Positions 8,049 through 33,246 of a stretch of DNA of 34,871 nt are shown here, piece after piece. The notes under the pieces were generated by a model, which saw only the letters and a list, made by a program, of their open reading frames with translations, did no database searches and had not been told where the DNA came from. The stretch is from an uncultured Candidatus Saccharibacteria bacterium. GTDB lineage: Bacteria; Patescibacteriota; Minisyncoccia; Phycocordibacterales; CAYHGJ01. A program made the translations under genes and the position numbers. The stretch spans positions 1 to 34,871 of the forward strand of contig CAYHGJ010000002.1 in the NCBI GenBank assembly GCA_964356235.1. Direction: 5' to 3'. Each line of letters opens with the position of its first letter. Position 1 is the first letter of the stretch.

Positions 8049-8121
8049 CCGCCCGTAGCTCAGTCGGTAGAGCAGCTCCCTTTTAAGGAGAGGGTCGCAG
8101 GTTCGATTCCTGCCGGGCGGA
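8049..8121 (+). tRNA. tRNA-Lys, anticodon UUU
   Basis: Aligns arm by arm with canonical bacterial tRNA-Lys: CCGCCCG TA GCTC AGTCGGTA GAGC A GCTCC CTTTTAA GGAGA GGGTC GCAGG TTCGATT CCTGC CGGGCGG A. Confidence 0.9.
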
Positions 8122-8157
8122 CCTGAATAAAATATTTGAAATGAATCCACACACAAT

Positions 8158-8185
8158 ACACATATGCGCGATAGCGCATATGTGT
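8158..8185 (+). repeat. 28-nt hairpin, copy 1 (ACACATATGCGC-GATA-GCGCATATGTGT)
   Basis: Perfect 12-bp stem with a 4-nt loop. Direct repeat of 8654-8681. Confidence 0.9.
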
Positions 8186-8218
8186 GCTAATTGTTTTATA
8201 TTGTTTTATAATCTACCT

Positions 8219-8608
8219 ATGCCTAACAAAAAATACCTCTATTACAAAGGTGTGTGCGTCAACGCTTTTGGCTTGCCTGTCTGGAAAGATGATAAAAAAG
8301 ATCGTCGCAAATATACAAACCGCAAAAGAAATTTTTATGGATTAAGTTTTGCTTCGCCGTTTAAAAAAGACTCTGTGAGAAACCTGATTGTGATGTACGA
8401 TATTATAGATATAAAGAAAAAAGAACGCGATTGGCTACGACGGCATTTAATAAAGTTTGGTTATTTGATGATACAGCGAAGTGTTTGGGTTGGGCCATCA
8501 CCTCTTCCAAAAGATTTTGTTGATTATGTTAAAAAACTTGGCCTACGAGCACATATTAAAAAGTTTAGACTAGCCAAACCCTACACTCCCAAAGAAAACA
8601 GATTTTAA
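8219..8608 (+). CDS. Cas2-fold / PaaX-C-terminal-like protein, orphan
   Basis: LIVMYDIIDIKKKERDWLRRHLIKFGYLMIQRSVWVG matches the Cas2-like beta1-alpha1-beta2 pattern (hydrophobic strand-YDI, helix, IQ+SV+). Basic N-terminus. The ORF opens at 8141; ATG 8219 was chosen because upstream codons lie inside hairpin copy 1. Confidence 0.45.
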   Translation: MPNKKYLYYKGVCVNAFGLPVWKDDKKDRRKYTNRKRNFYGLSFASPFKKDSVRNLIVMYDIIDIKKKERDWLRRHLIKFGYLMIQRSVWVGPSPLPKDFVDYVKKLGLRAHIKKFRLAKPYTPKENRF

Positions 8609-8653: not shown

Positions 8654-8681
8654 ACACATATGCGCGATAGCGTATATGTGT
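8654..8681 (+). repeat. 28-nt hairpin, copy 2 (ACACATATGCGC-GATA-GCGTATATGTGT)
   Basis: One substitution relative to copy 1, which gives a G.T (G.U) pair on the plus strand. Confidence 0.9.
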
Positions 8682-8746
8682 GTAGTATAGGGTAAATATA
8701 AGAGAGTAAATATAAGGTAAGGTAGATAGATAATTATGTATAAAAA

Positions 8747-9448: not shown

Positions 9449-9549
9449 AAATTTAGTTTATAAAGTAAAAAGTTTATAAAGTTCTTAAAGTATTTCTGTT
9501 TGAATTTATTTTTCTTTCCACTTTAATAACCTTACGAACTTTACGAACT
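9449..9549 (+). repeat. AT-rich 9-nt-periodic repeat element, full copy
   Basis: TTTAGTTTATAAAGT..GTTTATAAAGTTCTTAAAGT ... CACTTTAATAACCTTACGAACTTTACGAACT. Collinear with 17011-17128. The two halves are mutually inverted. Confidence 0.8.
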
Positions 9550-11949
9550 GCCCTTTGGCGTAGCCAAAGGATTCATTTCCGCCCAATTTTGTCCAACCTT
9601 TATATTTGCTTCAAATTTTATTCCCAGGGCATCCTCTCTTGGCACCACCCCTTCCATTATCATTTCTATTTTGGGAGCCACTTCTTTAACAATCTTCTCG
9701 TCCATTTCAAAGACGAGCTCATCATGCACTTGGAGAAGAAGCCTAACCTTGTTTTCCAAACCTTCTTTTAGAATAAGCTCGTCCACCCTTTTCATGGCTA
9801 TTTTTATAATATCAGCGGATGTCCCTTGTATTGGCGCGTTTATAGCCATTCTTTCTGCGGAGGCTCTTATGAATGGAAGTTTGGATTTTATATCAGGAAA
9901 ATATCTCCTTCTGCCAAAAAAGGTCTCTGTATATCCCCTCCTGTAAGTTTCCGCTTTCACATGTTCCAAATATTCTGCCAGTCCTGAAAATTCTTTGAAA
10001 TATTCATTATAAAATTTTTGCGCCGTTTCTCTATCGCTCCCGAGATTTGCCCGAAGAGCATTTACCCCCATACCATAAAGAATGCCGAAGTTTATAATCT
10101 TTGCCTGCCTTCTCATATCGCTTGTGACCTTATCAAGCGAAACATTAAAAACCTCGCTAGCAACGGCTTGGTGAACATCAACCCCTTTTTTGAAAATATC
10201 TACAAGTTTTTTGTCCTTGCTAAGAAGGGCGGATATACGAAGCTCTATCTGAGAATAATCAAGGGCCACAAGTTTTTTACCATCATCCGCCACAAAGGCC
10301 TTCCTAACATTTCTACCTTCATCATCTGTGTTCACCGGAATGTTTTGGAGGTTTGGGTTATTTGATGACATTCTGCCTGTTGTGGTGCCTGCCTGCAAAA
10401 ACTTAGCGCGTAGTCTGCCATCGGGAGATACCATATCCGGAATATTGTCCACATAAGTGGAGAGAATTTTTTGAAGTGTTCGATGTTTTAAGATTTCTTT
10501 TACTATTGGGTATTCGTCTTTTAGTTTTTCAAGCTCCGATTCGCGAGTGGACCTTGCCCCACCTGCTGTTTTTTTGAGACCCTTTGCTGTAATCCTAAGT
10601 CTATCAAACAAAATATTACCAAGCTGTTTTGGTGAATTTATATTAAAAACCTCTCCCGCCATCTCATAAATATTGTTTTCTATAACAGAGAGGTCTTTGT
10701 GGTACTCCTTTGAAAGTTTTGCTAGATAATCCTTATCCACCCTTATGCCACTTTTTTCCATCTTGGTGATTATAGGAATAAGAGGTTTTTCAATATCATT
10801 AAAAATAGAGATTGTTTTGTTTTTCTCAAGCTCTTTTATTATTTTTTCATAAGCATTATCTAGTGTTTTTGTGTTTGTTTCTTCTAAAATACCTGCAAGG
10901 TCGGCGTTTGTGTTGTTGGAATCAAAAACCCAAAAGGCAATCTTTGTCTCTTGTAGCATCTTTTCATCCACTTCTTTGGGGGTGGTATTGTATCCTCCTA
11001 TATCCAAACCAAGTTGTTCTCCTTTAAACAAAATGGTCTTCACTCTTTCTCTAAGAACCTTAAATTCAAGTTCCTTGAAAAGCTCATCTATCTTTTGGAA
11101 AGATAAGTTTTCTTTAAAATGTTTCTTAGGGATTGCAAAATCAATATTTACATCTTTTTTTATAGTGGCCAATGCCTTGCTAAATAGCGCCTCCTCTTCA
11201 TTGTCCAAAAGAAGTTTTATTATTCTTGGTTTTATTCCTGCCTTTAAAAAAGGAGCTTCATCTTTTTTTAGTTTTTTGTATATTTCCTCAATACTTCCAA
11301 AATTTACGATAAGTTCGGTCGCCGTTTTTTCTCCAATGCCAGAAATGCCGATAATGTTATCCGACGGATCCCCCCGCAACCCCTTATAATCCACGAGAAG
11401 CTCGGGCGAAAAACCAAACCTTTCTTTGACCATACTCTCATCATAAACAATGGTATCTTTTATTCCTTTTTTCAAAGTATAGACTGTCACCTTTTTGCCA
11501 GAAACAAGTTGCAGTGTATCCATATCACCGGAGGCAATAACCACTTCCATATTTTTCATAGGAGTACAAAGTGTGGCGATAGTGCCTATGATATCATCCG
11601 CCTCGTACCCTGCCCTATCATAGATAGGAACACCAAAAGCTTCAAAAATTTTGCGGGATTTTATTATCTGCATCACAAGATCATCCTCCGCTTTTTTTCT
11701 ACCCGCTTTGTATGCCTCATATGCTTCGTGTCTGTGTGTTGGCCCGGGCAAATCGTAACAAGCCGCCACATAGTCCGGTTTTAAATCTTCTATTATTTTT
11801 ATGAGCATGGCCGAGAGGCCATAAAGACCTCCTGTTGGCTCGCCACCTCTTGTAGAAAAATCCGGTAGAGCATGATATGCCCTGTGAAGTATGGCGTGCA
11901 CATCAAGAAGCACCAGTCTTTTGTTTTCTTTTTCTGCTTTAGCTATCAT
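9541..11949 (-). CDS. polA: DNA polymerase I
   Basis: N-terminal 5'-3' exonuclease domain (LLDVHAILHRAYHA, GYEADDIIGT), C-terminal family A polymerase motifs (DYSQIELR, RRQAKIINFGILYGM, QVHDELVFE). Confidence 0.95.
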   Translation of the reverse strand: MIAKAEKENKRLVLLDVHAILHRAYHALPDFSTRGGEPTGGLYGLSAMLIKIIEDLKPDYVAACYDLPGPTHRHEAYEAYKAGRKKAEDDLVMQIIKSRKIFEAFGVPIYDRAGYEADDIIGTIATLCTPMKNMEVVIASGDMDTLQLVSGKKVTVYTLKKGIKDTIVYDESMVKERFGFSPELLVDYKGLRGDPSDNIIGISGIGEKTATELIVNFGSIEEIYKKLKKDEAPFLKAGIKPRIIKLLLDNEEEALFSKALATIKKDVNIDFAIPKKHFKENLSFQKIDELFKELEFKVLRERVKTILFKGEQLGLDIGGYNTTPKEVDEKMLQETKIAFWVFDSNNTNADLAGILEETNTKTLDNAYEKIIKELEKNKTISIFNDIEKPLIPIITKMEKSGIRVDKDYLAKLSKEYHKDLSVIENNIYEMAGEVFNINSPKQLGNILFDRLRITAKGLKKTAGGARSTRESELEKLKDEYPIVKEILKHRTLQKILSTYVDNIPDMVSPDGRLRAKFLQAGTTTGRMSSNNPNLQNIPVNTDDEGRNVRKAFVADDGKKLVALDYSQIELRISALLSKDKKLVDIFKKGVDVHQAVASEVFNVSLDKVTSDMRRQAKIINFGILYGMGVNALRANLGSDRETAQKFYNEYFKEFSGLAEYLEHVKAETYRRGYTETFFGRRRYFPDIKSKLPFIRASAERMAINAPIQGTSADIIKIAMKRVDELILKEGLENKVRLLLQVHDELVFEMDEKIVKEVAPKIEMIMEGVVPREDALGIKFEANIKVGQNWAEMNPLATPKGSS

Positions 11950-11970
11950 TTGATTATCATAATGCGAATT

Positions 11971-12408
11971 TTACATATTTATTTCTCTAGTATTTTCATC
12001 CACAAATTCAAAATAAATTTTTTTAATATCCTTTGGCAGTTTTTCTAAAATTCTTTCCGGCCATTCTATAAAAATAATATTTTGCGGATCATTTCTTAAT
12101 TCTTCAAAACCAAGGTGTCTCAACTCATCGGCATTCTCCAAGCGATACGCATCTATATGAACCATATGTTTCCAAAAATTTTTTGTTTTTGCTGGCAGTT
12201 TATATATTTTTTCAATTATAAAAGTTGGACTTATTATTGTCTCATCTATACCAAAATGTTCCGCGCATTTTTTTACAAAAGCGGTTTTACCGGCTCCAAG
12301 ATCCCCAAACAAACCGACAACAACCGCCTTTTCTCCCATTTTCAAAGTGTCTAAAAAAAAAGACGCCAGAGTAGCTGTTTCCTCCAAGCTTTTAGAAACA
12401 TATTTCAT
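11971..12408 (-). CDS. tsaE: tRNA t6A37 biosynthesis ATPase TsaE
   Basis: GDLGAGKTAFVK Walker A, SPTFII, HIDAYRL. Confidence 0.85.
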   Translation of the reverse strand: MKYVSKSLEETATLASFFLDTLKMGEKAVVVGLFGDLGAGKTAFVKKCAEHFGIDETIISPTFIIEKIYKLPAKTKNFWKHMVHIDAYRLENADELRHLGFEELRNDPQNIIFIEWPERILEKLPKDIKKIYFEFVDENTREINM

Positions 12409-12419
12409 CCCTTGATTTT

Positions 12420-12458
12420 ACCCTGTTAAATAAAATTTAGCTAAGCTAAATTTTGGCC
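12420..12458 (+). repeat. ACCCTG-family repeat, left flank of the GC-rich cassette
   Basis: ACCCTGTTAAAT (12420-12431; the same 12-mer as 28245-28256) ... AAATTTTGGCC (12448-12458). Same orientation as 13227-13249. Confidence 0.7.
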
Positions 12459-12497
12459 TTACTTTTTCGCAAGAATAAAAGGCCATTTATCGCAGAA

Positions 12498-12541
12498 CCC
12501 ATAGGATACACCTATGTATGTACATAGGTGTATCCTATGGG
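12498..12541. repeat. 44-nt near-perfect palindrome
   Basis: CCCATAGGATACACCTATGTA TG TACATAGGTGTATCCTATGGG: 21 complementary positions on each arm. Confidence 0.9.
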
Positions 12542-12544
12542 AAA

Positions 12545-12586
12545 TTTTGCAAAAGGAAAGCCCCTCCGCGCAAGCGCAGAGGGGCT
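12545..12586 (-). terminator. intrinsic terminator of the GC-rich lipoprotein gene
   Basis: 13-bp GC-rich stem (AGCCCCTCCGCGC / GCGCAGAGGGGCT on the plus strand). Its single odd pair is G.U only in the minus-strand RNA. The minus strand continues TTCCTTTTGC. Confidence 0.7.
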
Positions 12587-12600
12587 GTGGACGGGCGAGG

Positions 12601-13110
12601 TCAGGACAAGCTGACCCTGCGCCGTCCGGAGCTTTTCCGAGGGGTCGTCGGCCCCTCGGGGGATGAGGATGGAGTGGTTGTGGTTGACTGTCGGAGACTC
12701 CTTCCGACAGTAACCATGTCACTTCGCCACTCACCGGGACGGGTCCGGACACGCGCCCGAACCTCGTCCGTGCCAACGACGCGTCCCGCGCCATCGAGGA
12801 AGGTGATTGCCAGCGTGACGTAGTCACGCTGGCGAACCACGACCGTATGGTTAGCGAAGAAGAACTCCGCCACACCGCCCGCCGGGATCAATTCGTTGAC
12901 CCCGGGACCACGGTCTCCGTGGAAACTCGGGCCGACGACCCGAGCATTCATCGCAAACGCTGAGGCGTTTGCGACCGCGATCGTGGTCCCGCCGTTGGCG
13001 GGCCACGTGTAGGAGGTGGTCCTACGACCGCTCTGGTCGTAGGTCGCCATCGAGCACCCCGTCGCGCCAAGCGCGACGAGAGCAATGAGAACGACAAAAA
13101 ACTTCTTCAT
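12601..13110 (-). CDS. lipoprotein of unknown function, GC-rich foreign-looking gene
   Basis: MKKFFVVLIALVALGATG|CS signal peptide plus lipobox, GGGAG SD, GC-rich codons, TGA stop. The longer ORF to 13149 lacks an SD. Confidence 0.6.
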   Translation of the reverse strand: MKKFFVVLIALVALGATGCSMATYDQSGRRTTSYTWPANGGTTIAVANASAFAMNARVVGPSFHGDRGPGVNELIPAGGVAEFFFANHTVVVRQRDYVTLAITFLDGAGRVVGTDEVRARVRTRPGEWRSDMVTVGRSLRQSTTTTPSSSPEGPTTPRKSSGRRRVSLS

Positions 13111-13198
13111 TTTCTCTCTCCCTGCTCGTCCACCCGTGTCAGTTGACACAGGCGGACTAGGGCTGTTAGTTGTCTATGGAAACTTCGCTTCTGTCTGT

Positions 13199-13228
13199 AT
13201 TATAGCATACTTTGCCCCATTTTGTCAA
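13199..13228 (-). promoter_or_regulatory. near-consensus sigma70 promoter of the lipoprotein gene
   Basis: Minus strand TTGACA (13223-13228), 18-nt spacer, TGcTATAAT (-10 at 13199-13204). Confidence 0.65.
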
Positions 13229-13249
13229 CCCTGTATTGAATTTTGGCAT
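13227..13249 (+). repeat. ACCCTG-family repeat arm AACCCTGTATTGAATTTTGGCAT
   Basis: 22 of 23 nt identical to the reverse complement of 15149-15171, and 19 of 23 to 15094-15116. Confidence 0.85.
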
Positions 13250-13358
13250 TCGCACATTATCTTGAAGACGGACCTCAAGGTGGGGAAATATTGGATACGA
13301 GAGCAACATGGCGCCGTATTATTTTCTTAAGCCCTTATTTTAAGTTATAATTTAACAA

Positions 13359-15041
13359 ATGGTACAGTTTAATGAAGATTATAAAAAGCGAGTTTCAGAC
13401 CTACGCAAAAAAGAGGAGGAGAATTTGGCACAGCTTCTTTCAAAAAAATATTCCGTCCGGTACAGTGACCTCTCTGGCGTCTCCATAAACACAGACGCTC
13501 TGCGCCTTATTAGTGAAAAGGTTGCCAGAGAAAACAAGATGGCCGCTTTTAAGCTTGTTGGCAAAAATCTAGACATCGCCGTCCTCTCTCCAAACAAAAA
13601 AGAAGCCCTAGCGGTAGTGCGAGAGCTTGAAGAAAGAGAATATAAAATCACACTTCACATGGTCTCTACCGCAAGTTTAGAGAGAGCTTGGGAGAGATAC
13701 AAGGACATCACCTTTTCCACAGAAACAAAGGAGGGGGTACTTGATGTTTCAAGTGAAGAAATAACAAAAATTCTCAAAAAAACAAAGGGGCTTAATGACG
13801 CAAGAAAAATCATACAAGAAATCCTAACTGCCAAAAAAGGTTTTCGCATTTCAAGAATTGTAGAGATTGTTGTGGCCACAAGTCTTGCCACAGGGGCATC
13901 GGATATACACATAGAGCCAGAGGAAGGATACATCAGACTGCGCTTCCGACTAGATGGCATCCTAACAGAGGTCTTAAATTTTGACAGAGAAACATACGAG
14001 CTTTTGCTTTCAAGAATAAAACTTCTCTCGGGACTTAAATTAAATATAAAAGAATCCCCGCAAGACGGGCGTTTTTCCATACGACTTGAAGAGTCCGATA
14101 TAGAGATAAGGAGCTCTACTCTCCCCGGGGCATACGGCGAAAGCATTGTCATGCGTATCCTAAACCCAGACGCTATTTCTGTGCCCCTTGAAGAGCTTGG
14201 TATGGATGATTATTTTTTGGAAATAGTAAAAAAAGAAATCTCCCGCCCAAATGGCATGATACTAAACACAGGACCAACAGGTTCTGGAAAAACAACCACC
14301 CTTTATGCTATCCTCAAAAAAATCCACACACCCGAAGTAAAAATAATCACCATTGAAGACCCTGTTGAATATCACCTCCCCGGCATTGTTCAGACACAAG
14401 TAGAAAAGGCAAAAAAATATACGTTCGCATCGGGTCTTCGCGCTTCTTTGCGACAAGATCCAGATGTCATAATGGTTGGAGAAATAAGAGACCAAGAAAC
14501 AGCAGAGATAGCCATAAACGCGGCTCTGACGGGGCACCTTGTTTTTTCTACACTTCACACAAACAACGCCTCCGGCACATTCCCCCGCCTTATTGATCTT
14601 GGTGTAAATCCAAAAGTCATTTCCTCTGCTATAAACCTTTCAATGGCACAAAGACTTGTACGAAAGCTTTGCAAAGATTGCAAAAAGGAGGCAACGGCTA
14701 CAGAGGCAGAGCTTGTAAAAATAAAAAGAATTATAGATTCAATCAAAGACAAGACTAGAATTCCAAAAGATTATAAAAAAGTATGGGTAGCGGGCGTTGG
14801 GTGCGCCACTTGTGAAAAAACTGGCTACAAAGGCAGACTTGGAATATTTGAAGCCATCGTTTCTGATAAAGAGCTTGAAGATGTGATACAAAAAAATCCC
14901 TCGGAGCGAGAGATAGAGAAAGCGTCAGAACATCAAGGCATTTTAAATATGAAACAAGACGGAATATTGAAGGTCTTGCGCGGAATAACTTCTATGGCGG
15001 AATTGGAGAGAGTGCTTGATTTAGATGTAGAAACAAACTAG
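13359..15041 (+). CDS. pilB: type II/IV secretion system ATPase (GspE/PilB family)
   Basis: Walker A GPTGSGKTTT, Asp box, Walker B DPDVIMVGEIRD, His box TGHLVFSTLHTN, and a CxxC...CxxC zinc motif. Confidence 0.9.
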   Translation: MVQFNEDYKKRVSDLRKKEEENLAQLLSKKYSVRYSDLSGVSINTDALRLISEKVARENKMAAFKLVGKNLDIAVLSPNKKEALAVVRELEEREYKITLHMVSTASLERAWERYKDITFSTETKEGVLDVSSEEITKILKKTKGLNDARKIIQEILTAKKGFRISRIVEIVVATSLATGASDIHIEPEEGYIRLRFRLDGILTEVLNFDRETYELLLSRIKLLSGLKLNIKESPQDGRFSIRLEESDIEIRSSTLPGAYGESIVMRILNPDAISVPLEELGMDDYFLEIVKKEISRPNGMILNTGPTGSGKTTTLYAILKKIHTPEVKIITIEDPVEYHLPGIVQTQVEKAKKYTFASGLRASLRQDPDVIMVGEIRDQETAEIAINAALTGHLVFSTLHTNNASGTFPRLIDLGVNPKVISSAINLSMAQRLVRKLCKDCKKEATATEAELVKIKRIIDSIKDKTRIPKDYKKVWVAGVGCATCEKTGYKGRLGIFEAIVSDKELEDVIQKNPSEREIEKASEHQGILNMKQDGILKVLRGITSMAELERVLDLDVETN

Positions 15042-15093
15042 GATGGGAGAGAGTTGTTTAACAAAAAAACAAGCTCAATTCCTTTTTCGATTT

Positions 15094-15171
15094 CACCCCG
15101 TAGTAGATTTTGGCATTTATCTTGGAGATAGAACACTTGTAGCGCTCGATGCCAAAATTCACTACAGGGTT
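15094..15171 (+). repeat. ACCCTG-family inverted-repeat element
   Basis: Arms CACCCCGTAGTAGATTTTGGCAT (15094-15116) and ATGCCAAAATTCACTACAGGGTT (15149-15171), with 19 of 23 positions pairable and a 32-nt interior. Confidence 0.8.
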
Positions 15172-15176
15172 CAGAG

Positions 15177-15312
15177 GATAAACCTCTCCACAATACTTTT
15201 GACGCAAAGCGTCAAAAGCTAGAAAAATTTTCAAAGGATAACACCAGTCGAAACCAGTGTGTCCCCAAAATAAACCCATTTACTCGCAAAAGTAATTGTA
15301 GAGAGGTTTATC
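15177..15312 (+). repeat. second long inverted repeat in the pilB-ruvB spacer
   Basis: GATAAACCTCTCCACAA (15177-15193) pairs with TTGTAGAGAGGTTTATC (15296-15312) at 16 of 17 positions. The interior holds a perfect hairpin CTTTTGACGC-AAA-GCGTCAAAAG (15196-15218). Confidence 0.8.
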
Positions 15313-15408
15313 ACCTGAAAGATAAGAAACCAAACGCATAAAGCGTGCTATGTGATATTAAAACGAAGATTGTCAAAACTACCGGAAGCTTAACATAAAA
15401 TCATTCAA

Positions 15409-16419
15409 ATGTCAAGCAAAAACGATACCCCCAAAGAAGACTCATTTTTGGACCAGACACTACGCCCTAGCGCCTGGAAAGAGTACGTTGGCCAAGAAAA
15501 TATTAAAAAGAATTTACAGATTTTGCTTTCCGCCGCAAAGGGACGAAATCACCCGCCTGAACACTTGCTTTTCTACGGTCCGGCGGGCTTGGGCAAAACA
15601 ACGCTGGCATATCTTATAGCAAAAGAAACAGGTAGTCAAATGAAGGTAACCTCGGGCCCCGCCATTGAAAAAGTGGGTGATTTGGCATCAATTTTAACAA
15701 ATCTTTCTCCCGGCGATATTCTTTTTATAGACGAGATACATAGACTAAATAGAAATATTGAAGAAATCCTCTACCCCGCCATGGAATCCGGCGCCCTTGA
15801 TATCATCATAGGCAAAGGTCCGTCAGCCCGCACCATACAACTTGAACTCCCGCCGTTTACACTTATTGCTGCCACTACAAAAATAGCGATGCTTTCCACT
15901 CCGCTACGCTCTCGTTTTTCTGGCGGAGTTTTCAGGCTTGAGTTTTACACAGAAGATGAAATCGCCCAGATTCTTTCTCGCTCAGCAAAAATTCTTGGAG
16001 TTAATGCTGAAAAAAAAGCCATTGAGGAGATTGCCAAGAGAAGCCGTTTTACCCCGCGCACCGCAAACTATCTTTTAAAAAGGTCTAGGGATTTTACTGA
16101 GGTGCACAACAAACCTTTTGATGAAAAAGCTGTAATGGAAGCCCTGGCCCTTCTCGGAGTTGATCCGCTTGGGCTTATCCCGTCTGACATAAAACTTCTT
16201 GAAGCAATCATTCACAAATTTAACGGAGGGCCTGTCGGGCTAAACACCCTCTCTGCTTCTCTTTCAGAAGAAGAGGCAACGATAGAAGAAGTGCACGAGC
16301 CATACTTAATACAGCTTGGTTTTTTGGAGAGAACCCCGCGCGGAAGGACTGCGACAGAAAAAGCTTATGGGCATTTAAAAATAAAAATGCCGGAAAGTCT
16401 CCAAAATAAGTTAATCTAG
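15409..16419 (+). CDS. ruvB: Holliday junction DNA helicase RuvB
   Basis: LRPSAWKEYVGQE, Walker A GPAGLGKTT, Walker B LFIDEIHRL, C-terminal winged helix. Confidence 0.95.
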   Translation: MSSKNDTPKEDSFLDQTLRPSAWKEYVGQENIKKNLQILLSAAKGRNHPPEHLLFYGPAGLGKTTLAYLIAKETGSQMKVTSGPAIEKVGDLASILTNLSPGDILFIDEIHRLNRNIEEILYPAMESGALDIIIGKGPSARTIQLELPPFTLIAATTKIAMLSTPLRSRFSGGVFRLEFYTEDEIAQILSRSAKILGVNAEKKAIEEIAKRSRFTPRTANYLLKRSRDFTEVHNKPFDEKAVMEALALLGVDPLGLIPSDIKLLEAIIHKFNGGPVGLNTLSASLSEEEATIEEVHEPYLIQLGFLERTPRGRTATEKAYGHLKIKMPESLQNKLI

Positions 16420-16484: not shown

Positions 16485-17015
16485 ATGTCCGGTCATAACA
16501 AGTGGTCAAAAATAAAAAATAAAAAGGCGATTACCGATGCTAAAAAGAGCAAGATCTTTTCTAAGCTTGTAAAGCTCATACAGGTAGAGTCACGCCTCTC
16601 ACATGGCAACATGGAGTCCCTCGGACTTCGCACAGCCATACAAAAAGCCAAAGAGGCCAATATGCCAAGCGATAACATAGATAGGGCTGTCAAAAAAGGC
16701 GCCAAAGGAGAGGGGGTGGAGCTTGAAATGGCGGTCTATGAAACATACGGACCAGGGGGTGTGGCAATAATGATAGAAATCCTAACCGATAATAAAAACA
16801 GGTCCTCCGCAGAAATAAAACATATACTTTCTAAAAACGGACACGCTCTTGCGACTCCCGGTAGTTGCTCTTGGGCGTTTCACAAAGAGGGCAAAGAGTG
16901 GTTGCCACAAACCACAGTAGAAATAAGCGCTGAGGATGGAGCAAAACTTGAAGCCCTCATAGATGAGCTTGAAGAAAATGATGAGGTCCAAGAAATTTTT
17001 CATAATGGACTTTAG
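16485..17015 (+). CDS. yebC: YebC/PmpR-family protein, short form
   Basis: MSGHNKWSKIKNKKA..., YETYGPGGVAIMIEILTDNKNRS. 176 aa from ATG 16485. Confidence 0.85.
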   Translation: MSGHNKWSKIKNKKAITDAKKSKIFSKLVKLIQVESRLSHGNMESLGLRTAIQKAKEANMPSDNIDRAVKKGAKGEGVELEMAVYETYGPGGVAIMIEILTDNKNRSSAEIKHILSKNGHALATPGSCSWAFHKEGKEWLPQTTVEISAEDGAKLEALIDELEENDEVQEIFHNGL

Positions 17016-17128
17016 TTTATAAAGTTAAAAGTTTTTAAAGTTCATAAAGAAACCCGCAAGCGCAAAGTGTTCCACGTTTTTGAATTTTTCTTTTCACTTT
17101 ATAAACTTTCTAAACCTGATAAACTAAC
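17011..17128 (+). repeat. AT-rich 9-nt-periodic repeat element, full copy
   Basis: TTTAGTTTATAAAGTTAAAAGTTTTTAAAGTTCATAAAG ... CACTTTATAAACTTTCTAAACCTGATAAACTAA. Collinear with 9449-9549 and carries an extra GC-richer insert in the middle. Confidence 0.8.
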
Positions 17129-25448: not shown

Positions 25449-25477
25449 TTGACATATAAACGTTTTGGGTGTATAAT
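25449..25477 (+). promoter_or_regulatory. consensus sigma70 promoter, unit 1
   Basis: TTGACA (25449-25454), 17-nt spacer, TATAAT (25472-25477). It starts 2 nt after the rnpA stop. Confidence 0.7.
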
Positions 25478-25497
25478 ACTAAGAGGAGGACAGTCAG

Positions 25498-25638
25498 ATG
25501 ACTTGGCTCATCGTGTGGGACACCCGTCAGGGTCAGACGGTTGAGATCTACATTGGAGGAGCTGACAAGTTCGCAGACTATCTGCGCCACAAGATCAGCT
25601 CTGGATTCAAGGCGGTCTCAATCTGCTGTCAGGGCTAG
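25498..25638 (+). CDS. 46-aa protein of unknown function
   Basis: AAGAGGAGG SD 8 nt upstream of the ATG. MTWLIVWDTRQGQTVEIYIGGADKFADYLRHKISSGFKAVSICCQG. GC-richer than the flanks. Absent from the track because it is shorter than 60 aa. Confidence 0.45.
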   Translation: MTWLIVWDTRQGQTVEIYIGGADKFADYLRHKISSGFKAVSICCQG

Positions 25639-25661
25639 CGGCCCTGTCCTAACCCTGACAA

Positions 25662-25686
25662 GTGGCGCGGAAACGCGCCACTTTTT
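25662..25686 (+). terminator. intrinsic terminator, unit 1
   Basis: GTGGCGCG-GAAA-CGCGCCAC followed by TTTTT. Confidence 0.8.
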
Positions 25687-25721
25687 AAAGCCGTTTTGGA
25701 GGCAAAGGGATTGTTTTAATA

Positions 25722-25750
25722 TTGACAAACTAGTTAATTAGGAGTATAAT
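25722..25750 (+). promoter_or_regulatory. consensus sigma70 promoter, unit 2
   Basis: TTGACA (25722-25727), 17-nt spacer, TATAAT (25745-25750). Confidence 0.7.
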
Positions 25751-25770
25751 AAACATAGGAGGAAACAAAC

Positions 25771-25953
25771 ATGGACAGCGTGGACAGACAAAAAGTCCTA
25801 AGGCGGGCGACCCTTGTGGGTGCAGGTGTATTTTTAGTAGCTCTTTTTTTGATTGAAGTTTTTTTTGGAGGGATTGATATCCCCCTGGTTGTATTTGCTG
25901 GGGGCATCGCAGTAGCATCTGGGGTGATTTACGATTGCATTGTGTGCTGGTAG
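25771..25953 (+). CDS. 60-aa two-TM membrane protein of unknown function
   Basis: AGGAGG SD (25757-25762). MDSVDRQKVLRRATLVGAGVFLVALFLIEVFFGGIDIPLVVFAGGIAVASGVIYDCIVCW. Confidence 0.5.
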   Translation: MDSVDRQKVLRRATLVGAGVFLVALFLIEVFFGGIDIPLVVFAGGIAVASGVIYDCIVCW

Positions 25954-25959
25954 GTTGGA

Positions 25960-25985
25960 AGTGGGGATTCGTCCCCGCTTTTTTA
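25960..25985 (+). terminator. intrinsic terminator, unit 2
   Basis: AGTGGGGA-TTCG-TCCCCGCT followed by TTTTTT. Confidence 0.8.
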
Positions 25986-25998
25986 TTACCACGTTCAC

Positions 25999-26027
25999 TT
26001 GACATGCATTAATTATCAGAATATACT
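25999..26027 (+). promoter_or_regulatory. near-consensus sigma70 promoter, unit 3
   Basis: TTGACA (25999-26004), 17-nt spacer, TATACT (26022-26027). Confidence 0.6.
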
Positions 26028-26033
26028 TTAAAA

Positions 26034-26078
26034 CAATGCAGACATAGCTGTCCGCCCGAGAGGGTGGGCATTTTGTTT
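26034..26078 (+). ncRNA. candidate ~45-nt small RNA (promoter-to-terminator unit without a real ORF)
   Basis: Only a 3-codon ATG-CAG-ACA-TAG lies between the promoter and the terminator TGTCCGCCC-GAGA-GGGTGGGCA plus TTTTGTTT (26049-26078). The 5' end is assumed, not observed. Confidence 0.3.
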
Positions 26079-28244: not shown

Positions 28245-28297
28245 ACCCTGTTAAATCATTCTCGTCGAGAATGACACAGTGGTGTATTTAACAGGGT
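28245..28297 (+). repeat. ACCCTG-family inverted repeat, short member
   Basis: ACCCTGTTAAAT (28245-28256) and ATTTAACAGGGT (28286-28297). Nested hairpin CATTCTC-gtc-GAGAATG (28257-28273). Confidence 0.85.
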
Positions 28298-28585: not shown

Positions 28586-28602
28586 TTGTTTTTTCAAAAA
28601 AT

Positions 28603-28641
28603 CACTCCACTCCGCCAGCTGGCGGATTGGGGTGGTTTTTT
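28603..28641 (+). terminator. intrinsic terminator
   Basis: CACTCCACTCCGCC-AGCT-GGCGGATTGGGGTGG followed by TTTTTT. Confidence 0.7.
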
Positions 28642-28655
28642 GTTTGAGGGGCATG

Positions 28656-28787
28656 CCCGCACACCAACCCTGCCATTATTTTACTTTGTCAGCAACTTAT
28701 TTTTTTCTATACTGATTAAAACGATAAGATGTATTAATAAAAATTATATATAAAAATAGTGAGGCGATGGCAGGGTTGGTGTGCGGG
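28656..28787 (+). repeat. 21-bp perfect inverted repeat enclosing a 90-nt AT-rich promoter-like segment upstream of tig
   Basis: CCCGCACACCAACCCTGCCAT (28656-28676) and ATGGCAGGGTTGGTGTGCGGG (28767-28787). The interior has TTGTCA (28686-28691), 16 nt, TATACT (28708-28713), pointing at tig. Confidence 0.9.
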
Positions 28788-29876: not shown

Positions 29877-30010
29877 TCCGCACACTGACCCTGTTATCGT
29901 CTAATATTTTGATGATTGAGACTTACCATTTGGTTTTGTATAATAAGGGTGGTATAAAGAGATACCCGATTTATTACAAAGACAAAATAATAACAGGGTT
30001 AGTGTGCGGA
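29877..30010 (+). repeat. 21-bp inverted repeat (20 Watson-Crick pairs plus one G.T) enclosing a 92-nt promoter-like segment upstream of clpP
   Basis: TCCGCACACTGACCCTGTTAT (29877-29897) and ATAACAGGGTTAGTGTGCGGA (29990-30010). The interior has TTGAGA (29916-29921), 17 nt, TATAAT (29939-29944), pointing at clpP. Confidence 0.9.
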
Positions 30011-30033: not shown

Positions 30034-30615
30034 ATGTTAGTCCCAATCGTTGTAGATAAAACCCAGTTTGGAGAGAGGTCATATGATATATACTCTCGCC
30101 TGTTAAAAGATAGGATAGTTTTTCTTGCCGGTCCCATTGATGATGTTGTGGCAAATATTGTTATTGCCCAGCTTCTCTTTTTGGAATCGGAGGATTCAAA
30201 GAAGGACATATATCTTTACATAAACTCTCCGGGAGGAGATGTTAGCGCTGGCCTTGCTATCATAGATACAATGAACCACATCAAACCTCCTGTAAACACT
30301 GTTTGTGTAGGACTTGCCGCCTCAGCAGCCGCCATCATCCTTGCCTCTGGCCAAAAGGGCAAAAGGTTTGCTCTGCCAAATGCCGAAATAATGATTCACC
30401 AACCATGGGGAGGGGCTCAAGGTCAGACTTCGGATATTGAGATTACTGCCAAAAGAATGCTTAGAATGAGAGAAAACCTCAACAAAATGCTTTCTGATAA
30501 AACAGGACAACCTTTAGACAAGGTTTCCAAGGACGTGGATAGAGACTATTTTATGTCAGCAGATGAGGCCAAAAAATACGGACTTATTGATGAGGTGTAT
30601 AAGGTAAAGAAATAG
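30034..30615 (+). CDS. clpP: ATP-dependent Clp protease proteolytic subunit
   Basis: [17 protein letters not shown], catalytic GLAASAAA (Ser), MIHQP (His). Confidence 0.95.
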
Positions 30616-30640
30616 AAGGGAGCAAAAAAGCGCAAAAAGC

Positions 30641-30679
30641 AACCCCCCACTTGGCGGTTAAACCGCCAAGTGGGGGGTT
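30641..30679. terminator. 39-nt perfect palindrome after clpP
   Basis: AACCCCCCACTTGGCGGTT a AACCGCCAAGTGGGGGGTT. No clean U-run follows. The TTGTCA at 30678-30683 overlaps its end. Confidence 0.6.
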
Positions 30680-30724
30680 GTCAATAGGGGGGTTTTATGG
30701 TAATGTCAAAAATGGAGGTGATAT

Positions 30725-31120
30725 ATGAGGTCTCTACAAAGTCCATTTAATTGGACAGAAGTAGTAAGAGTAATTGTCGCGGCTTCTTTTTGTATTTTGA
30801 GCATAGGTGTAATTGTTTCTCTGTCTATCAGGGCAGCAAACATTGATCATGGGAAAGATTCCTCACCAATTCCCATCGGGATTTCTTCTGAAGGAGAATG
30901 GCGCGAAGTTGTTGGTGGCCCTTCATATGCGGAAGGAGTACCCTATTTTGTTTTGAAAAGCGGGTATGTCGCTTTCTGTTCCAGAGAAAAACTTGAAACA
31001 CTTGGTGGCAAAAAATACCCTCTTGAAGCAAGAGTGCGGAGTGTGCCGGGGCGATATTCCCTTGCGATTACGGGAGGACAAGTTATCTTGGAATTTAGGG
31101 AGATAAAAAATGTTCCGTAG
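30725..31120 (+). CDS. membrane-anchored protein, unknown function
   Basis: Anti-SD-complementary GGAGGTGAT (30714-22). N-terminal TM helix (VVRVIVAASFCILSIGVIVSL). GC-richer than the flanks. Confidence 0.5.
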   Translation: MRSLQSPFNWTEVVRVIVAASFCILSIGVIVSLSIRAANIDHGKDSSPIPIGISSEGEWREVVGGPSYAEGVPYFVLKSGYVAFCSREKLETLGGKKYPLEARVRSVPGRYSLAITGGQVILEFREIKNVP

Positions 31121-33154: not shown

Positions 33155-33193
33155 GTTATTAGAGAATCTAGGGCCATTGAATTTGCAAGGTAA
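33155..33193 (+). other. second, out-of-frame copy of the last 12 codons plus stop of rny
   Basis: GTT ATT AGA GAA TCT AGG GCC ATT GAA TTT GCA AGG TAA encodes VIRESRAIEFAR*, the same peptide as 33064-33102. 33 of 39 nt are identical. Confidence 0.85.
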
Positions 33194-33197
33194 AATA

Positions 33198-33232
33198 GTT
33201 CATAAAGTTCATAAAGTACAAGGTTCATAAAG
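33198..33232 (+). repeat. GTTCATAAA 9-mer repeats (three copies)
   Basis: GTTCATAAA at 33198, 33207 and 33223. Related to the element at 17011-17128. Confidence 0.75.
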
Positions 33233-33246
33233 GAGGAGAAAAGAAA

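Follow-up and report, generated by a model that had tools for sequence, protein, structure and literature searches.

A GC-rich lipoprotein gene with a hairpin-dense predicted mRNA in the pilB-tsaE slot of a Patescibacteria-type genome

Results

Locus architecture and base composition

The stretch of DNA analysed here (the window) comprises 34,871 nt of contig CAYHGJ010000002.1 from an uncultured Patescibacteria-type bacterium, and the element in question is a GC-rich block carrying a single lipoprotein gene between tsaE and pilB (Table 1). An earlier note on the window, made from its letters alone, had read this block as a recently acquired, moron-like surface lipoprotein cassette integrated at or beside a dispersed repeat resembling an attachment (att) site. 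Both neighbours that it named were recovered with Pfam: tsaE (11971-12408, minus strand; E = 3e-30) and pilB, encoding a PilB-type T2SSE ATPase (13359-15041, plus strand; E = 4e-123). The surrounding contig was core chromosome, with polA, holA-like, ruvB, yebC, ruvC, PBP, dnaN, dnaA, nusA and class I aminoacyl-tRNA synthetase (Trp/Tyr type) genes, and no integrase or other mobility gene was found among the neighbours of the cassette (polA, tsaE, pilB, ruvB, yebC and ruvC). An independent ENA assembly (ERZ1292625, 'Hain_H41_01um', 2.8 kb) matched positions 11724-14547 at 99.6 % identity in the same pilB-cassette-tsaE arrangement, with 11 differences from the window and none inside the cassette. 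As this assembly spans both junctions, a chimeric origin of the block was ruled out. An A8 homopolymer in the 5' region of tsaE (12346-12353) was one base shorter in the independent 2x-coverage assembly (L001), cutting the TsaE call to 122 aa; this is probably a sequencing error and possibly a real variant.

The block held one coherent open reading frame (ORF) on the minus strand, and the elements that the earlier note had read around it were confirmed, including the signal peptide with lipobox, the Shine-Dalgarno (SD) site and a sigma-70-type promoter with an 18-nt spacer. The intrinsic terminator likewise stood with respect to its stem, its U-rich tail and the single odd U.G pair on the minus-strand RNA, although 12 pairs were counted in the stem rather than the 13 claimed. 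Promoter, SD site, ORF and terminator are all present in the sequence, and the proposal of autonomous expression held in the sense of a self-contained single-gene unit of lipoprotein type. A 44-nt palindrome was present 3' of the terminator where the note had placed it, with arms that proved fully complementary. It was absent from two related loci (L002 and L005), and the sole match in a scan of the metagenome collection was a same-strain contig. At the gathering score of Rfam 15 only tRNAs matched in the window and the related loci, and sub-threshold matches comprised microRNA models on the palindrome.

Windowed G+C, third-position G+C (GC3) and codon usage each identified the cassette as an extreme outlier. 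In 300-nt windows G+C was 0.55-0.65 at 12450-13200 against 0.31-0.45 in the flanks, and in 500-nt windows the cassette peaked at 0.648, some 7 standard deviations above the rest of the 34.9-kb contig (mean 0.385 ± 0.037, maximum 0.49, outside the cassette). The compositional flip that the note had placed at about 12545-13150 was therefore real, with 60-65 % G+C for 12550-13150 versus 38.5 ± 3.7 %. G+C at codon positions 1/2/3 of the ORF was 0.59/0.59/0.72, compared with contig means of 0.47/0.33/0.37 (z = 2.3/6.0/7.3). Codon choice was correspondingly shifted, for example in Arg (AGA 0 % in the ORF vs 50 % in the contig), Ala (GCG 59 % vs 16 %) and Val (GTC 63 % vs 16 %).

A clade-restricted family in a conserved slot

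A word-indexed search of 5.8 billion proteins returned one homologue of the lipoprotein and three were found among 1.84 billion representatives by exhaustive HMMER searching, whilst profile searching enlarged the family to approximately 11 proteins, all from the same clade. Encoding contigs were recovered for L002, L005, L006, L008, L010, L011 and L012, all Patescibacteria (Parcubacteria-like) genomes; the other three members (P0124, P0125 and P0129) were without a recovered contig. No significant match was found in Pfam, PDB sequences, PADLOC or PHROGs, and the protein is thus an orphan outside this family, in keeping with the earlier failure to recognise a homologue.

The Cys that follows the hydrophobic N-terminal segment was invariant in 11 of 11 family members and was preceded by G, A or S. 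As the Pfam model LPAM_1 scored below threshold (E = 0.68), the lipoprotein call rests on the lipobox pattern and its conservation. Four homologues were extended at the N terminus by a segment predicted to contain two membrane helices, and their processing is uncertain. AlphaFold2, run with the 11-sequence alignment (A3), models the mature domain as a generic beta-sandwich with six main strands (predicted local distance difference test, pLDDT, 82; predicted template modelling score 0.71), compared with a pLDDT of 41 from an initial two-sequence alignment. Foldseek searches of PDB and BFVD with the model returned generic beta-sandwiches only (aegerolysins, MSP domains, starch-binding domains), at TM-scores of 0.45 or less.

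At each of the seven recovered loci the gene either diverged from pilB or lay directly 5' of tsaE, or did both. The slot was occupied by a homologue in each of them, so the empty pilB-tsaE site that recent integration would predict was not found. The promoter pattern TTGAC[AT]-N17/18-TGCTATAAT preceded the gene at six of these seven loci (L002, L005, L006, L010, L011 and L012), and a leader motif, GAAGTTTCnATAnACAACTAA, was conserved in L002. The window lipoprotein shared 75, 62 and 25-31 % identity with its homologues, diverging much faster than its neighbours in related genomes (TsaE 79-82 % and 68 %; PilB 83 % and 73 %). Differences between the window and L002 fell on codon positions 1/2/3 in the pattern 27/19/61, and the ratio of non-synonymous to synonymous divergence (dN/dS) was 0.17-0.40. 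Both measures indicate a real coding sequence under purifying selection and, together with the absence of an Rfam family, ruled out a spurious ORF or a non-coding RNA. Synonymous divergence (dS) ranged from 0.7 to 1.2 inside a subclade and exceeded 2 from one subclade to the other (0.7-2.4 overall), a level at which synonymous sites are saturated. Judged by these divergences, the gene predates the radiation of its clade and its synonymous sites have been overwritten at least once.

Every homologue was nonetheless GC-enriched. GC3 of the annotated ORF was 0.59-0.72 in seven of eight loci, against 0.25-0.48 for the flanking genes; the exception was L012 (0.49), whose annotated ORF includes a long upstream extension. 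Since enrichment persists in every copy at saturated dS, the composition has been maintained and is not a fading foreign signature. The claim of recent acquisition was refuted by this persistence together with the conserved synteny.

In relatives at 58 % TsaE identity the slot was filled by other secreted or lipoprotein genes that were not detectably homologous and had mildly raised G+C. A candidate family member in L014 was rejected because its alignment was limited to the signal peptide. A contig search with PilB added just two distant GC-rich Paceibacterota loci, neither with a homologue of the lipoprotein. The pilB-tsaE slot thus appears to have housed envelope proteins beside the pilus ATPase gene for a long time, and in one subclade it holds the present family.

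Additional GC-rich small ORFs, unrelated to the lipoprotein, were observed in the slot of L005 (3579-3930; 72 aa, with two hydrophobic stretches read by eye), L006 (4232-4641; 118 aa) and L008 (4066-4329; 87 aa). Those of L005 and L006 each had their own consensus promoter, whilst the L008 slot yielded no promoter-like site. L005 also carried two terminators nearly identical in sequence.

Excess structure in the predicted mRNA

The predicted transcript, folded from 13192 to 12550 on the minus strand, had a minimum free energy of -355.7 kcal/mol versus -264.8 ± 5.7 for dinucleotide shuffles (z = -15.9). Its fold was a series of 17 local hairpins, each stem running uninterrupted for 6-13 bp; they lay at a mean spacing of ~36 nt and accounted for 60 % of the length. 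The transcript body was more paired than control genes (probability of being unpaired 0.26-0.35 vs 0.45-0.47), and greater openness was predicted for the ribosome-binding region than for the body (0.35 vs 0.27). Two conserved peptide motifs, ANASAFA and YDQxGR, were each encoded by a hairpin, and the last three hairpins of the ORF (13 to 15 in Table 1) encoded the C-terminal tail, where homologues already have a stop codon.

All eight homologous ORFs were more structured than their dinucleotide shuffles (z -2.5 to -11.9), compared with z-scores of -2.0 to +1.3 for five neighbouring-gene controls (segments of tsaE, pilB, polA and ruvB). Raised G+C alone lowers folding energy, to approximately -0.33 to -0.39 kcal/mol per nt in two unstructured slot ORFs against about -0.2 in host genes. 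A second comparison used synonymous codons shuffled within each gene, which preserves protein sequence and codon usage alike. By this measure z was -3.9 to -8.8 in seven of seven homologues and -7.5 for the window gene, whereas 14 control coding sequences gave -2.9 to +1.1. As synonymous shuffling loses the excess structure, the order of codons is arranged to make stems. The non-homologous slot genes of the relatives at 58 % TsaE identity gave synonymous-shuffle z-scores of +0.1 to -3.8, with the lipoprotein or large secreted ORF of each locus at about -3 to -4. When the whole contig was scanned in 300-nt windows, the cassette supplied the top-ranked one and seven of the 20 most negative z-scores. 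Windows at 1501-1950, 30451-30900 and 451-750 also gave folding z-scores of -7 to -9 in that scan.

Compensatory change was assessed in two alignments, A4 (group A: window, L002 and L005) and A5 (group B: L006, L010, L011 and L012), with 135 and 116 consensus pairs, respectively. In A4, 91.6 % of cells were paired (35-44 % when partners were slid), and in A5 90.8 % (42-50 % slid). Pairs changed on both sides numbered 17 in A4, against 7.6 ± 2.0 in shuffles (0/500 reached 17) and 1-3 when slid, and 18 in A5, against 7.1 ± 2.0 (0/500) and 2-5. A strand preference was also seen. The sense z-score was more negative than the antisense in eight of eight loci, and consensus energies favoured sense over antisense in both A4 (-169.9 vs -137.5) and A5 (-92.7 vs -55.3). 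Among cells that were not Watson-Crick pairs, the ratio of G.U to A.C was 55:8 (A4) and 76:13 (A5) in the sense direction, compared with 33:23 and 50:12 when the antisense strand was folded. The structure belongs to the sense RNA rather than to the DNA level, and in this gene protein and RNA structure are both under selection.

For most of the G+C spike, selection acting on mRNA structure offers the best account, and the hairpin-rich mRNA has probably caused much of it. G+C was higher at paired than at unpaired sites (0.56-0.71 vs 0.39-0.47), which is suggestive of stems as the cause, but the comparison is confounded in that control genes show the same direction. As a test for amelioration, three-taxon parsimony of GC-to-AT against AT-to-GC changes was uninformative, with a mirror-image artefact in the tsaE and pilB controls and all genes approaching an apparent equilibrium of ~0.5.

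Flanking motifs and the 22-nt repeat

The note had described same-orientation copies of an ACCCTG repeat on either side of the block. The sequence ACCCTGT...AATTTTGG does occur on the plus strand at both 12420-12456 and 13228-13246. Its half-motifs are separated by 22 nt in the former and 4 nt in the latter, so the two are not copies of one repeat, and both were absent from L002. ACCCTGT alone occurred 10 times against 2.75 expected. On the tsaE side the motif forms part of a conserved tsaE upstream sequence, as TAAATTTTATTTAACAGGGTAAAAT was conserved upstream of tsaE in L005 and absent in L002. On the pilB side it belongs to a 22-nt repeat with three copies in the window against none expected. 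L011, from the other subclade, had this repeat likewise against the -35 hexamer, plus an inverted partner. The remaining window copies form an inverted pair beyond pilB, and the repeat is consequently not a boundary of the cassette. A role as att sites was rejected, and the motifs have the appearance of regulatory or promoter-proximal repeats in the surroundings of pilB.

Related sequence features were noted elsewhere. The pilB-ruvB spacer (15001-15450), which holds the 22-nt inverted pair, folded with z of about -9.7 on either strand and contained a second inverted repeat (15170-15194/15295-15319). At 29888-29999 a divergent ACAGGGT(C/T)AGTGTGCGGA motif pair, ~100 nt apart, lay around an 11/12 promoter-like site at 29916.

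Table 1. Features of the lipoprotein cassette and its surroundings (positions in the window)
Feature	Position	Strand	Remarks
Sigma-70-type promoter, TTGACA-18-(TG)cTATAAT	13199..13228	-	12/12 consensus, extended -10
Predicted 5' untranslated region (UTR), ~82 nt	13111..13192	-	Transcription start site inferred
5' UTR hairpin, 13 bp	13157-13128	-	Transcript folding
Shine-Dalgarno site, GGGAGAGAG	13122-13114	-	Direct sequence reading
Lipoprotein ORF, 169 aa	12601..13110	-	Stop codon included; begins MKKFFVVLIALVALGATGC
Signal peptide and lipobox, MKKFFVVLIALVALGATG followed by C	13054..13110	-	Cys19 codon 13056-13054; pattern and conservation
Conserved mature domain, aa 19-141	12688..13056	-	AlphaFold2 beta-sandwich prediction
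C-terminal tail, aa 142-169	12604..12687	-	T/S/P/R-rich, lineage-specific; homologues end at ...GR(H/N)LR(K/R)R
Chain of 15 local hairpins	12598..13110	-	Stems 6-11 bp, mean spacing ~36 nt; within and just 3' of ORF
ORF hairpins 1-5	13110-13094, 13081-13057, 13043-13021, 13002-12988, 12975-12950	-	
ORF hairpins 6-10	12945-12925, 12922-12908, 12905-12882, 12872-12852, 12833-12809	-	
ORF hairpins 11-15	12797-12773, 12763-12742, 12711-12687, 12659-12637, 12617-12598	-	
Intrinsic terminator	12549..12586 (stem 12586-12559)	-	12-bp stem, 9 G-C pairs, loop CUUG, U-rich tail UUCCUUUUGC
44-nt perfect palindrome	12498..12541	.	Arms 12498-12518 and 12521-12541, 21 nt each, 100 % complementary; 2-nt centre; 3' of terminator
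tsaE-upstream region	12420..12458	-	ACAGGGT directly 5' of TAAAAT -10-like hexamer, 8 nt before tsaE start codon
22-nt repeat ACCCYGTAnTrrATTTTGGCAT, one copy	13228..13249	+	Abuts -35 hexamer of lipoprotein promoter
Inverted pair of 22-nt repeat	15095..15170 (15095-15116 +; 15149-15170 -)	.	Downstream of pilB, upstream of ruvB; outside cassette

Other elements on the contig

Three more miniature stand-alone units were observed upstream of nusA (25449-26070, plus strand), two with 12/12 promoters and one with an 11/12 promoter. Two of the units contained tiny ORFs with an SD site and their own terminator, one of 46 aa (25498-25638; GC3 0.70) and one of 60 aa with predicted membrane helices (25771-25953), and neither ORF showed excess mRNA structure. 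In the third unit the promoter runs straight into a short hairpin, which may represent a small RNA or a leader.

A tRNA at 8049-8123 (plus strand) was called 'tRNA-Stop' by ARAGORN, with anticodon TTA, whilst Infernal alignment placed UUU (Lys) in the anticodon and a G-A mismatch atop the anticodon stem. Equivalents were present in L006 and L008, and the gene may encode an ordinary tRNA-Lys or a UAA suppressor. Near-identical palindromic sequences of 29-33 nt (ACACATATGCGCGATAGCGCATATGTGT) were found at 8153-8186 and 8654-8686, one at the 5' end and one just 3' of a 155-aa ORF (8141-8608) with a PaaX-central/Cas2-like domain. An inverted pair, ACCCTGTTAAAT...ATTTAACAGGGT, occupied 28245-28297; downstream of it lay a 26-nt palindrome (28595-28642) and 57-nt inverted arms (28656-28712 and 28731-28787), in a region that folded with z of about -9. 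A dispersed A+T-rich intergenic repeat, TTTAGTTTATAAAGT...AAAGTTCTTAAAG, was present in both orientations at 9452-9490, 17011-17049, 2636-2677 and 33178-33241.

Discussion

We favour, with slightly better than even confidence, a reading in which the block holds a clade-specific lipoprotein gene, fast-evolving and passed on by vertical descent, whose mRNA has been selected for hairpins, with a stable, high-output message as the likely function. The gene occupies a conserved pilB-tsaE slot in a narrow Patescibacteria (Parcubacteria-like) lineage, with transcription driven by its own near-perfect sigma-70 promoter and ended by a strong terminator. Selection would fold the mRNA into dense, short, G+C-rich hairpins, like beads on a string, across the coding region whilst leaving the ribosome-binding region comparatively open. 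Acting on synonymous and some non-synonymous sites, this structural selection would hold the gene at 55-65 % G+C in a ~38 % genome, and the resulting GC-rich gene would mimic a horizontally acquired island. The hairpin chain would shield the transcript from ribonucleases, including endonucleases, and possibly from Rho. In combination with the consensus promoter and strong SD site it would give the message a long life and a high output, and the envelope lipoprotein that it encodes would be abundant. For the stability function taken by itself, we consider the chances to be about even.

Several observations weigh against this reading. The stability function is an inference from sequence and folding, and several intergenic regions and inverted repeats of the contig are also strongly structured. 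The covariation counts come from sets of three to four sequences each, with a consensus structure derived from the alignment on which it was tested. Individual hairpins differ from one subclade to the other; the long-term conserved trait is hairpin density, not specific helices. Two GC-rich ORFs that share the slot are unstructured (the L005 72-aa ORF, z = -0.4; L006 orf2, z = +0.6), and hairpins cannot therefore explain all of the GC enrichment at the locus. Moreover, third positions left unpaired in the lipoprotein gene still have a GC3 of 0.46-0.65. Given these unpaired positions and the unstructured neighbours in the slot, a second cause of GC enrichment may operate at strongly promoted small-ORF cassettes.

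The evidence bears unequally on the alternatives. That the block is a recently acquired foreign cassette, inserted at an att-like dispersed repeat, now appears highly improbable. It would account for the outlying composition and codon usage, the private promoter and terminator, the orphan protein and the short motifs on both sides. It is contradicted by synteny conserved across seven related loci at saturated synonymous divergence, by a core neighbourhood that holds no mobility gene, and by an independent assembly that confirms both junctions. The flanking motifs are unequal in spacing, missing in L002 and present elsewhere around pilB, and no donor homologue was found among the 1.84 billion representatives. 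An older event, in which the ancestor of the clade acquired the gene from an unsampled GC-rich donor or foreign alleles replaced it repeatedly, would make the G+C content, and perhaps the hairpins, donor-derived; we regard this as unlikely. Amino acid and codon usage do resemble those of a high-GC organism, some distant Paceibacterota genomes reach 56-59 % G+C, slot content turns over to different secreted or lipoprotein genes in distant relatives, and the lipoprotein has outpaced its neighbours in divergence. However, its synonymous sites have been rewritten (dS 1-2.4) whilst GC3 stays well above that of flanking genes, and a donor signature would give neither structure beyond synonymous shuffles nor compensatory substitutions inside the clade. 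Neither the GC-rich Paceibacterota loci nor the databases searched yielded a homologue from outside the clade.

The remaining alternatives accept the hairpins and differ as to their role. If the inverted repeats acted as DNA, template-switch mutagenesis or recombination driven by quasi-palindromes would diversify a surface protein encoded beside the pilus ATPase gene, with RNA folding as a by-product. Both strands do fold much more stably than their shuffles, protein evolution is rapid, hairpins turn over between subclades, and some compensatory changes are non-synonymous, as expected if template switching made paired changes in one step. We nevertheless hold this reading to be improbable, as the sense strand is consistently the more stable and one-sided changes keep sense G.U pairs (55:8 and 76:13), which matter to RNA and not to duplex or cruciform DNA. 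Furthermore, a dN/dS of 0.17-0.40 is purifying rather than diversifying, and the two sampled strain variants were identical across the cassette. A different RNA-level role is a minority possibility that deserves some weight, be it translation paced to suit co-translational secretion and lipidation, a block to Rho or to transcription running on into tsaE-polA, the sensing of temperature or a ligand, or a dual-function RNA with bound or processed hairpins. Such a role shares the structural evidence with the favoured reading; in addition, the very strong promoter and the gene are followed on the same strand by tsaE-polA, and the leader sequence is conserved. No Rfam family matched, however, and hairpin sequence and position differ between subclades, which favours a generic property over specific recognition elements. 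There is also a small chance that the hairpin chain is itself the functional device, either as a dual-function transcript with ~15 bound or processed stem-loops or as a template-switch engine rewriting a pilus-adjacent lipoprotein, in which case nucleic-acid structure would shape much of the protein sequence.

The original sequencing papers of 1980 reportedly described the lpp mRNA of Escherichia coli as extensively base-paired. Like lpp, the cassette consists of one small lipoprotein gene standing alone, with its own terminator and with a strong promoter and SD site, and it may share a design for stability and output. The two genes nonetheless have no kinship in sequence or fold, given that Lpp is a 58-residue coiled coil and the window protein is modelled as a beta-sandwich of ~120 residues; no homology to Lpp and no Pfam match was found. 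The cassette also differs in its Patescibacteria-type host and in its structure z-scores of about -11 to -16, covariation over the coding region and 25-point G+C excess, which are not described for lpp. The lpp message is stable, with a half-life of ~10 min, and is translated with very high efficiency (PMC5924895). Experiment and theory show that structure in coding regions prolongs the functional half-life of mRNA (10.1101/549022; PMC7457604), and designed double-stranded mRNAs resist degradation (PMC7457604). The stability function proposed here agrees with these findings and with the behaviour of the lpp message. In designed 'superfolder' mRNAs, as here, synonymous codons maximise pairing of the coding region and the initiation region is open, with protection from hydrolysis and nucleases as the expected gain. 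Those molecules, however, were engineered and tried in eukaryotic cells or in vitro, whereas the present case is a natural bacterial gene kept over deep divergence and known from its sequence.

The cassette also resembles genomic islets and morons in being atypical in G+C and codon usage, in having a promoter and terminator to itself, in encoding an orphan surface protein and in the variable content of its slot among distant relatives. Unlike them, it has been in place across a clade at saturated dS, and it has no mobility genes, true flanking repeats or donor. G+C-rich structured non-coding RNAs stand out in A+T-rich genomes, which is the basis of GC-content screens for such RNAs. The cassette shares with them a local G+C spike attributable to selection for stable helices, but it is an mRNA with a reading frame under purifying selection and matches no Rfam family. 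As a small lipoprotein gene adjoining, and divergent from, pilB, it recalls the type IV pilus lipoproteins (PilP and the pilotins PilF/Tgl). It differs in that no Pfam or structural similarity to PilP or the TPR pilotins was detected and no other pil genes are adjacent, and any functional link to the pilus is putative.

In sum, the cassette is a counter-example to a common reading of composition, as a self-promoted gene of extreme G+C and codon usage, set in an AT-rich genome, is yet an old resident, and detectors of islands and horizontal gene transfer would call it foreign. It also represents a natural 'superfolded' coding sequence, with constraints on protein and RNA structure overlaid along the whole gene. 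Its source is an uncultivated member of the Patescibacteria, in which the economy of gene expression and the proteins of the cell surface are poorly known. If the stability function is true, the cassette would provide a template for designing stable bacterial mRNAs, and an abundant envelope lipoprotein encoded beside a pilus motor gene may matter for the episymbiotic lifestyle.

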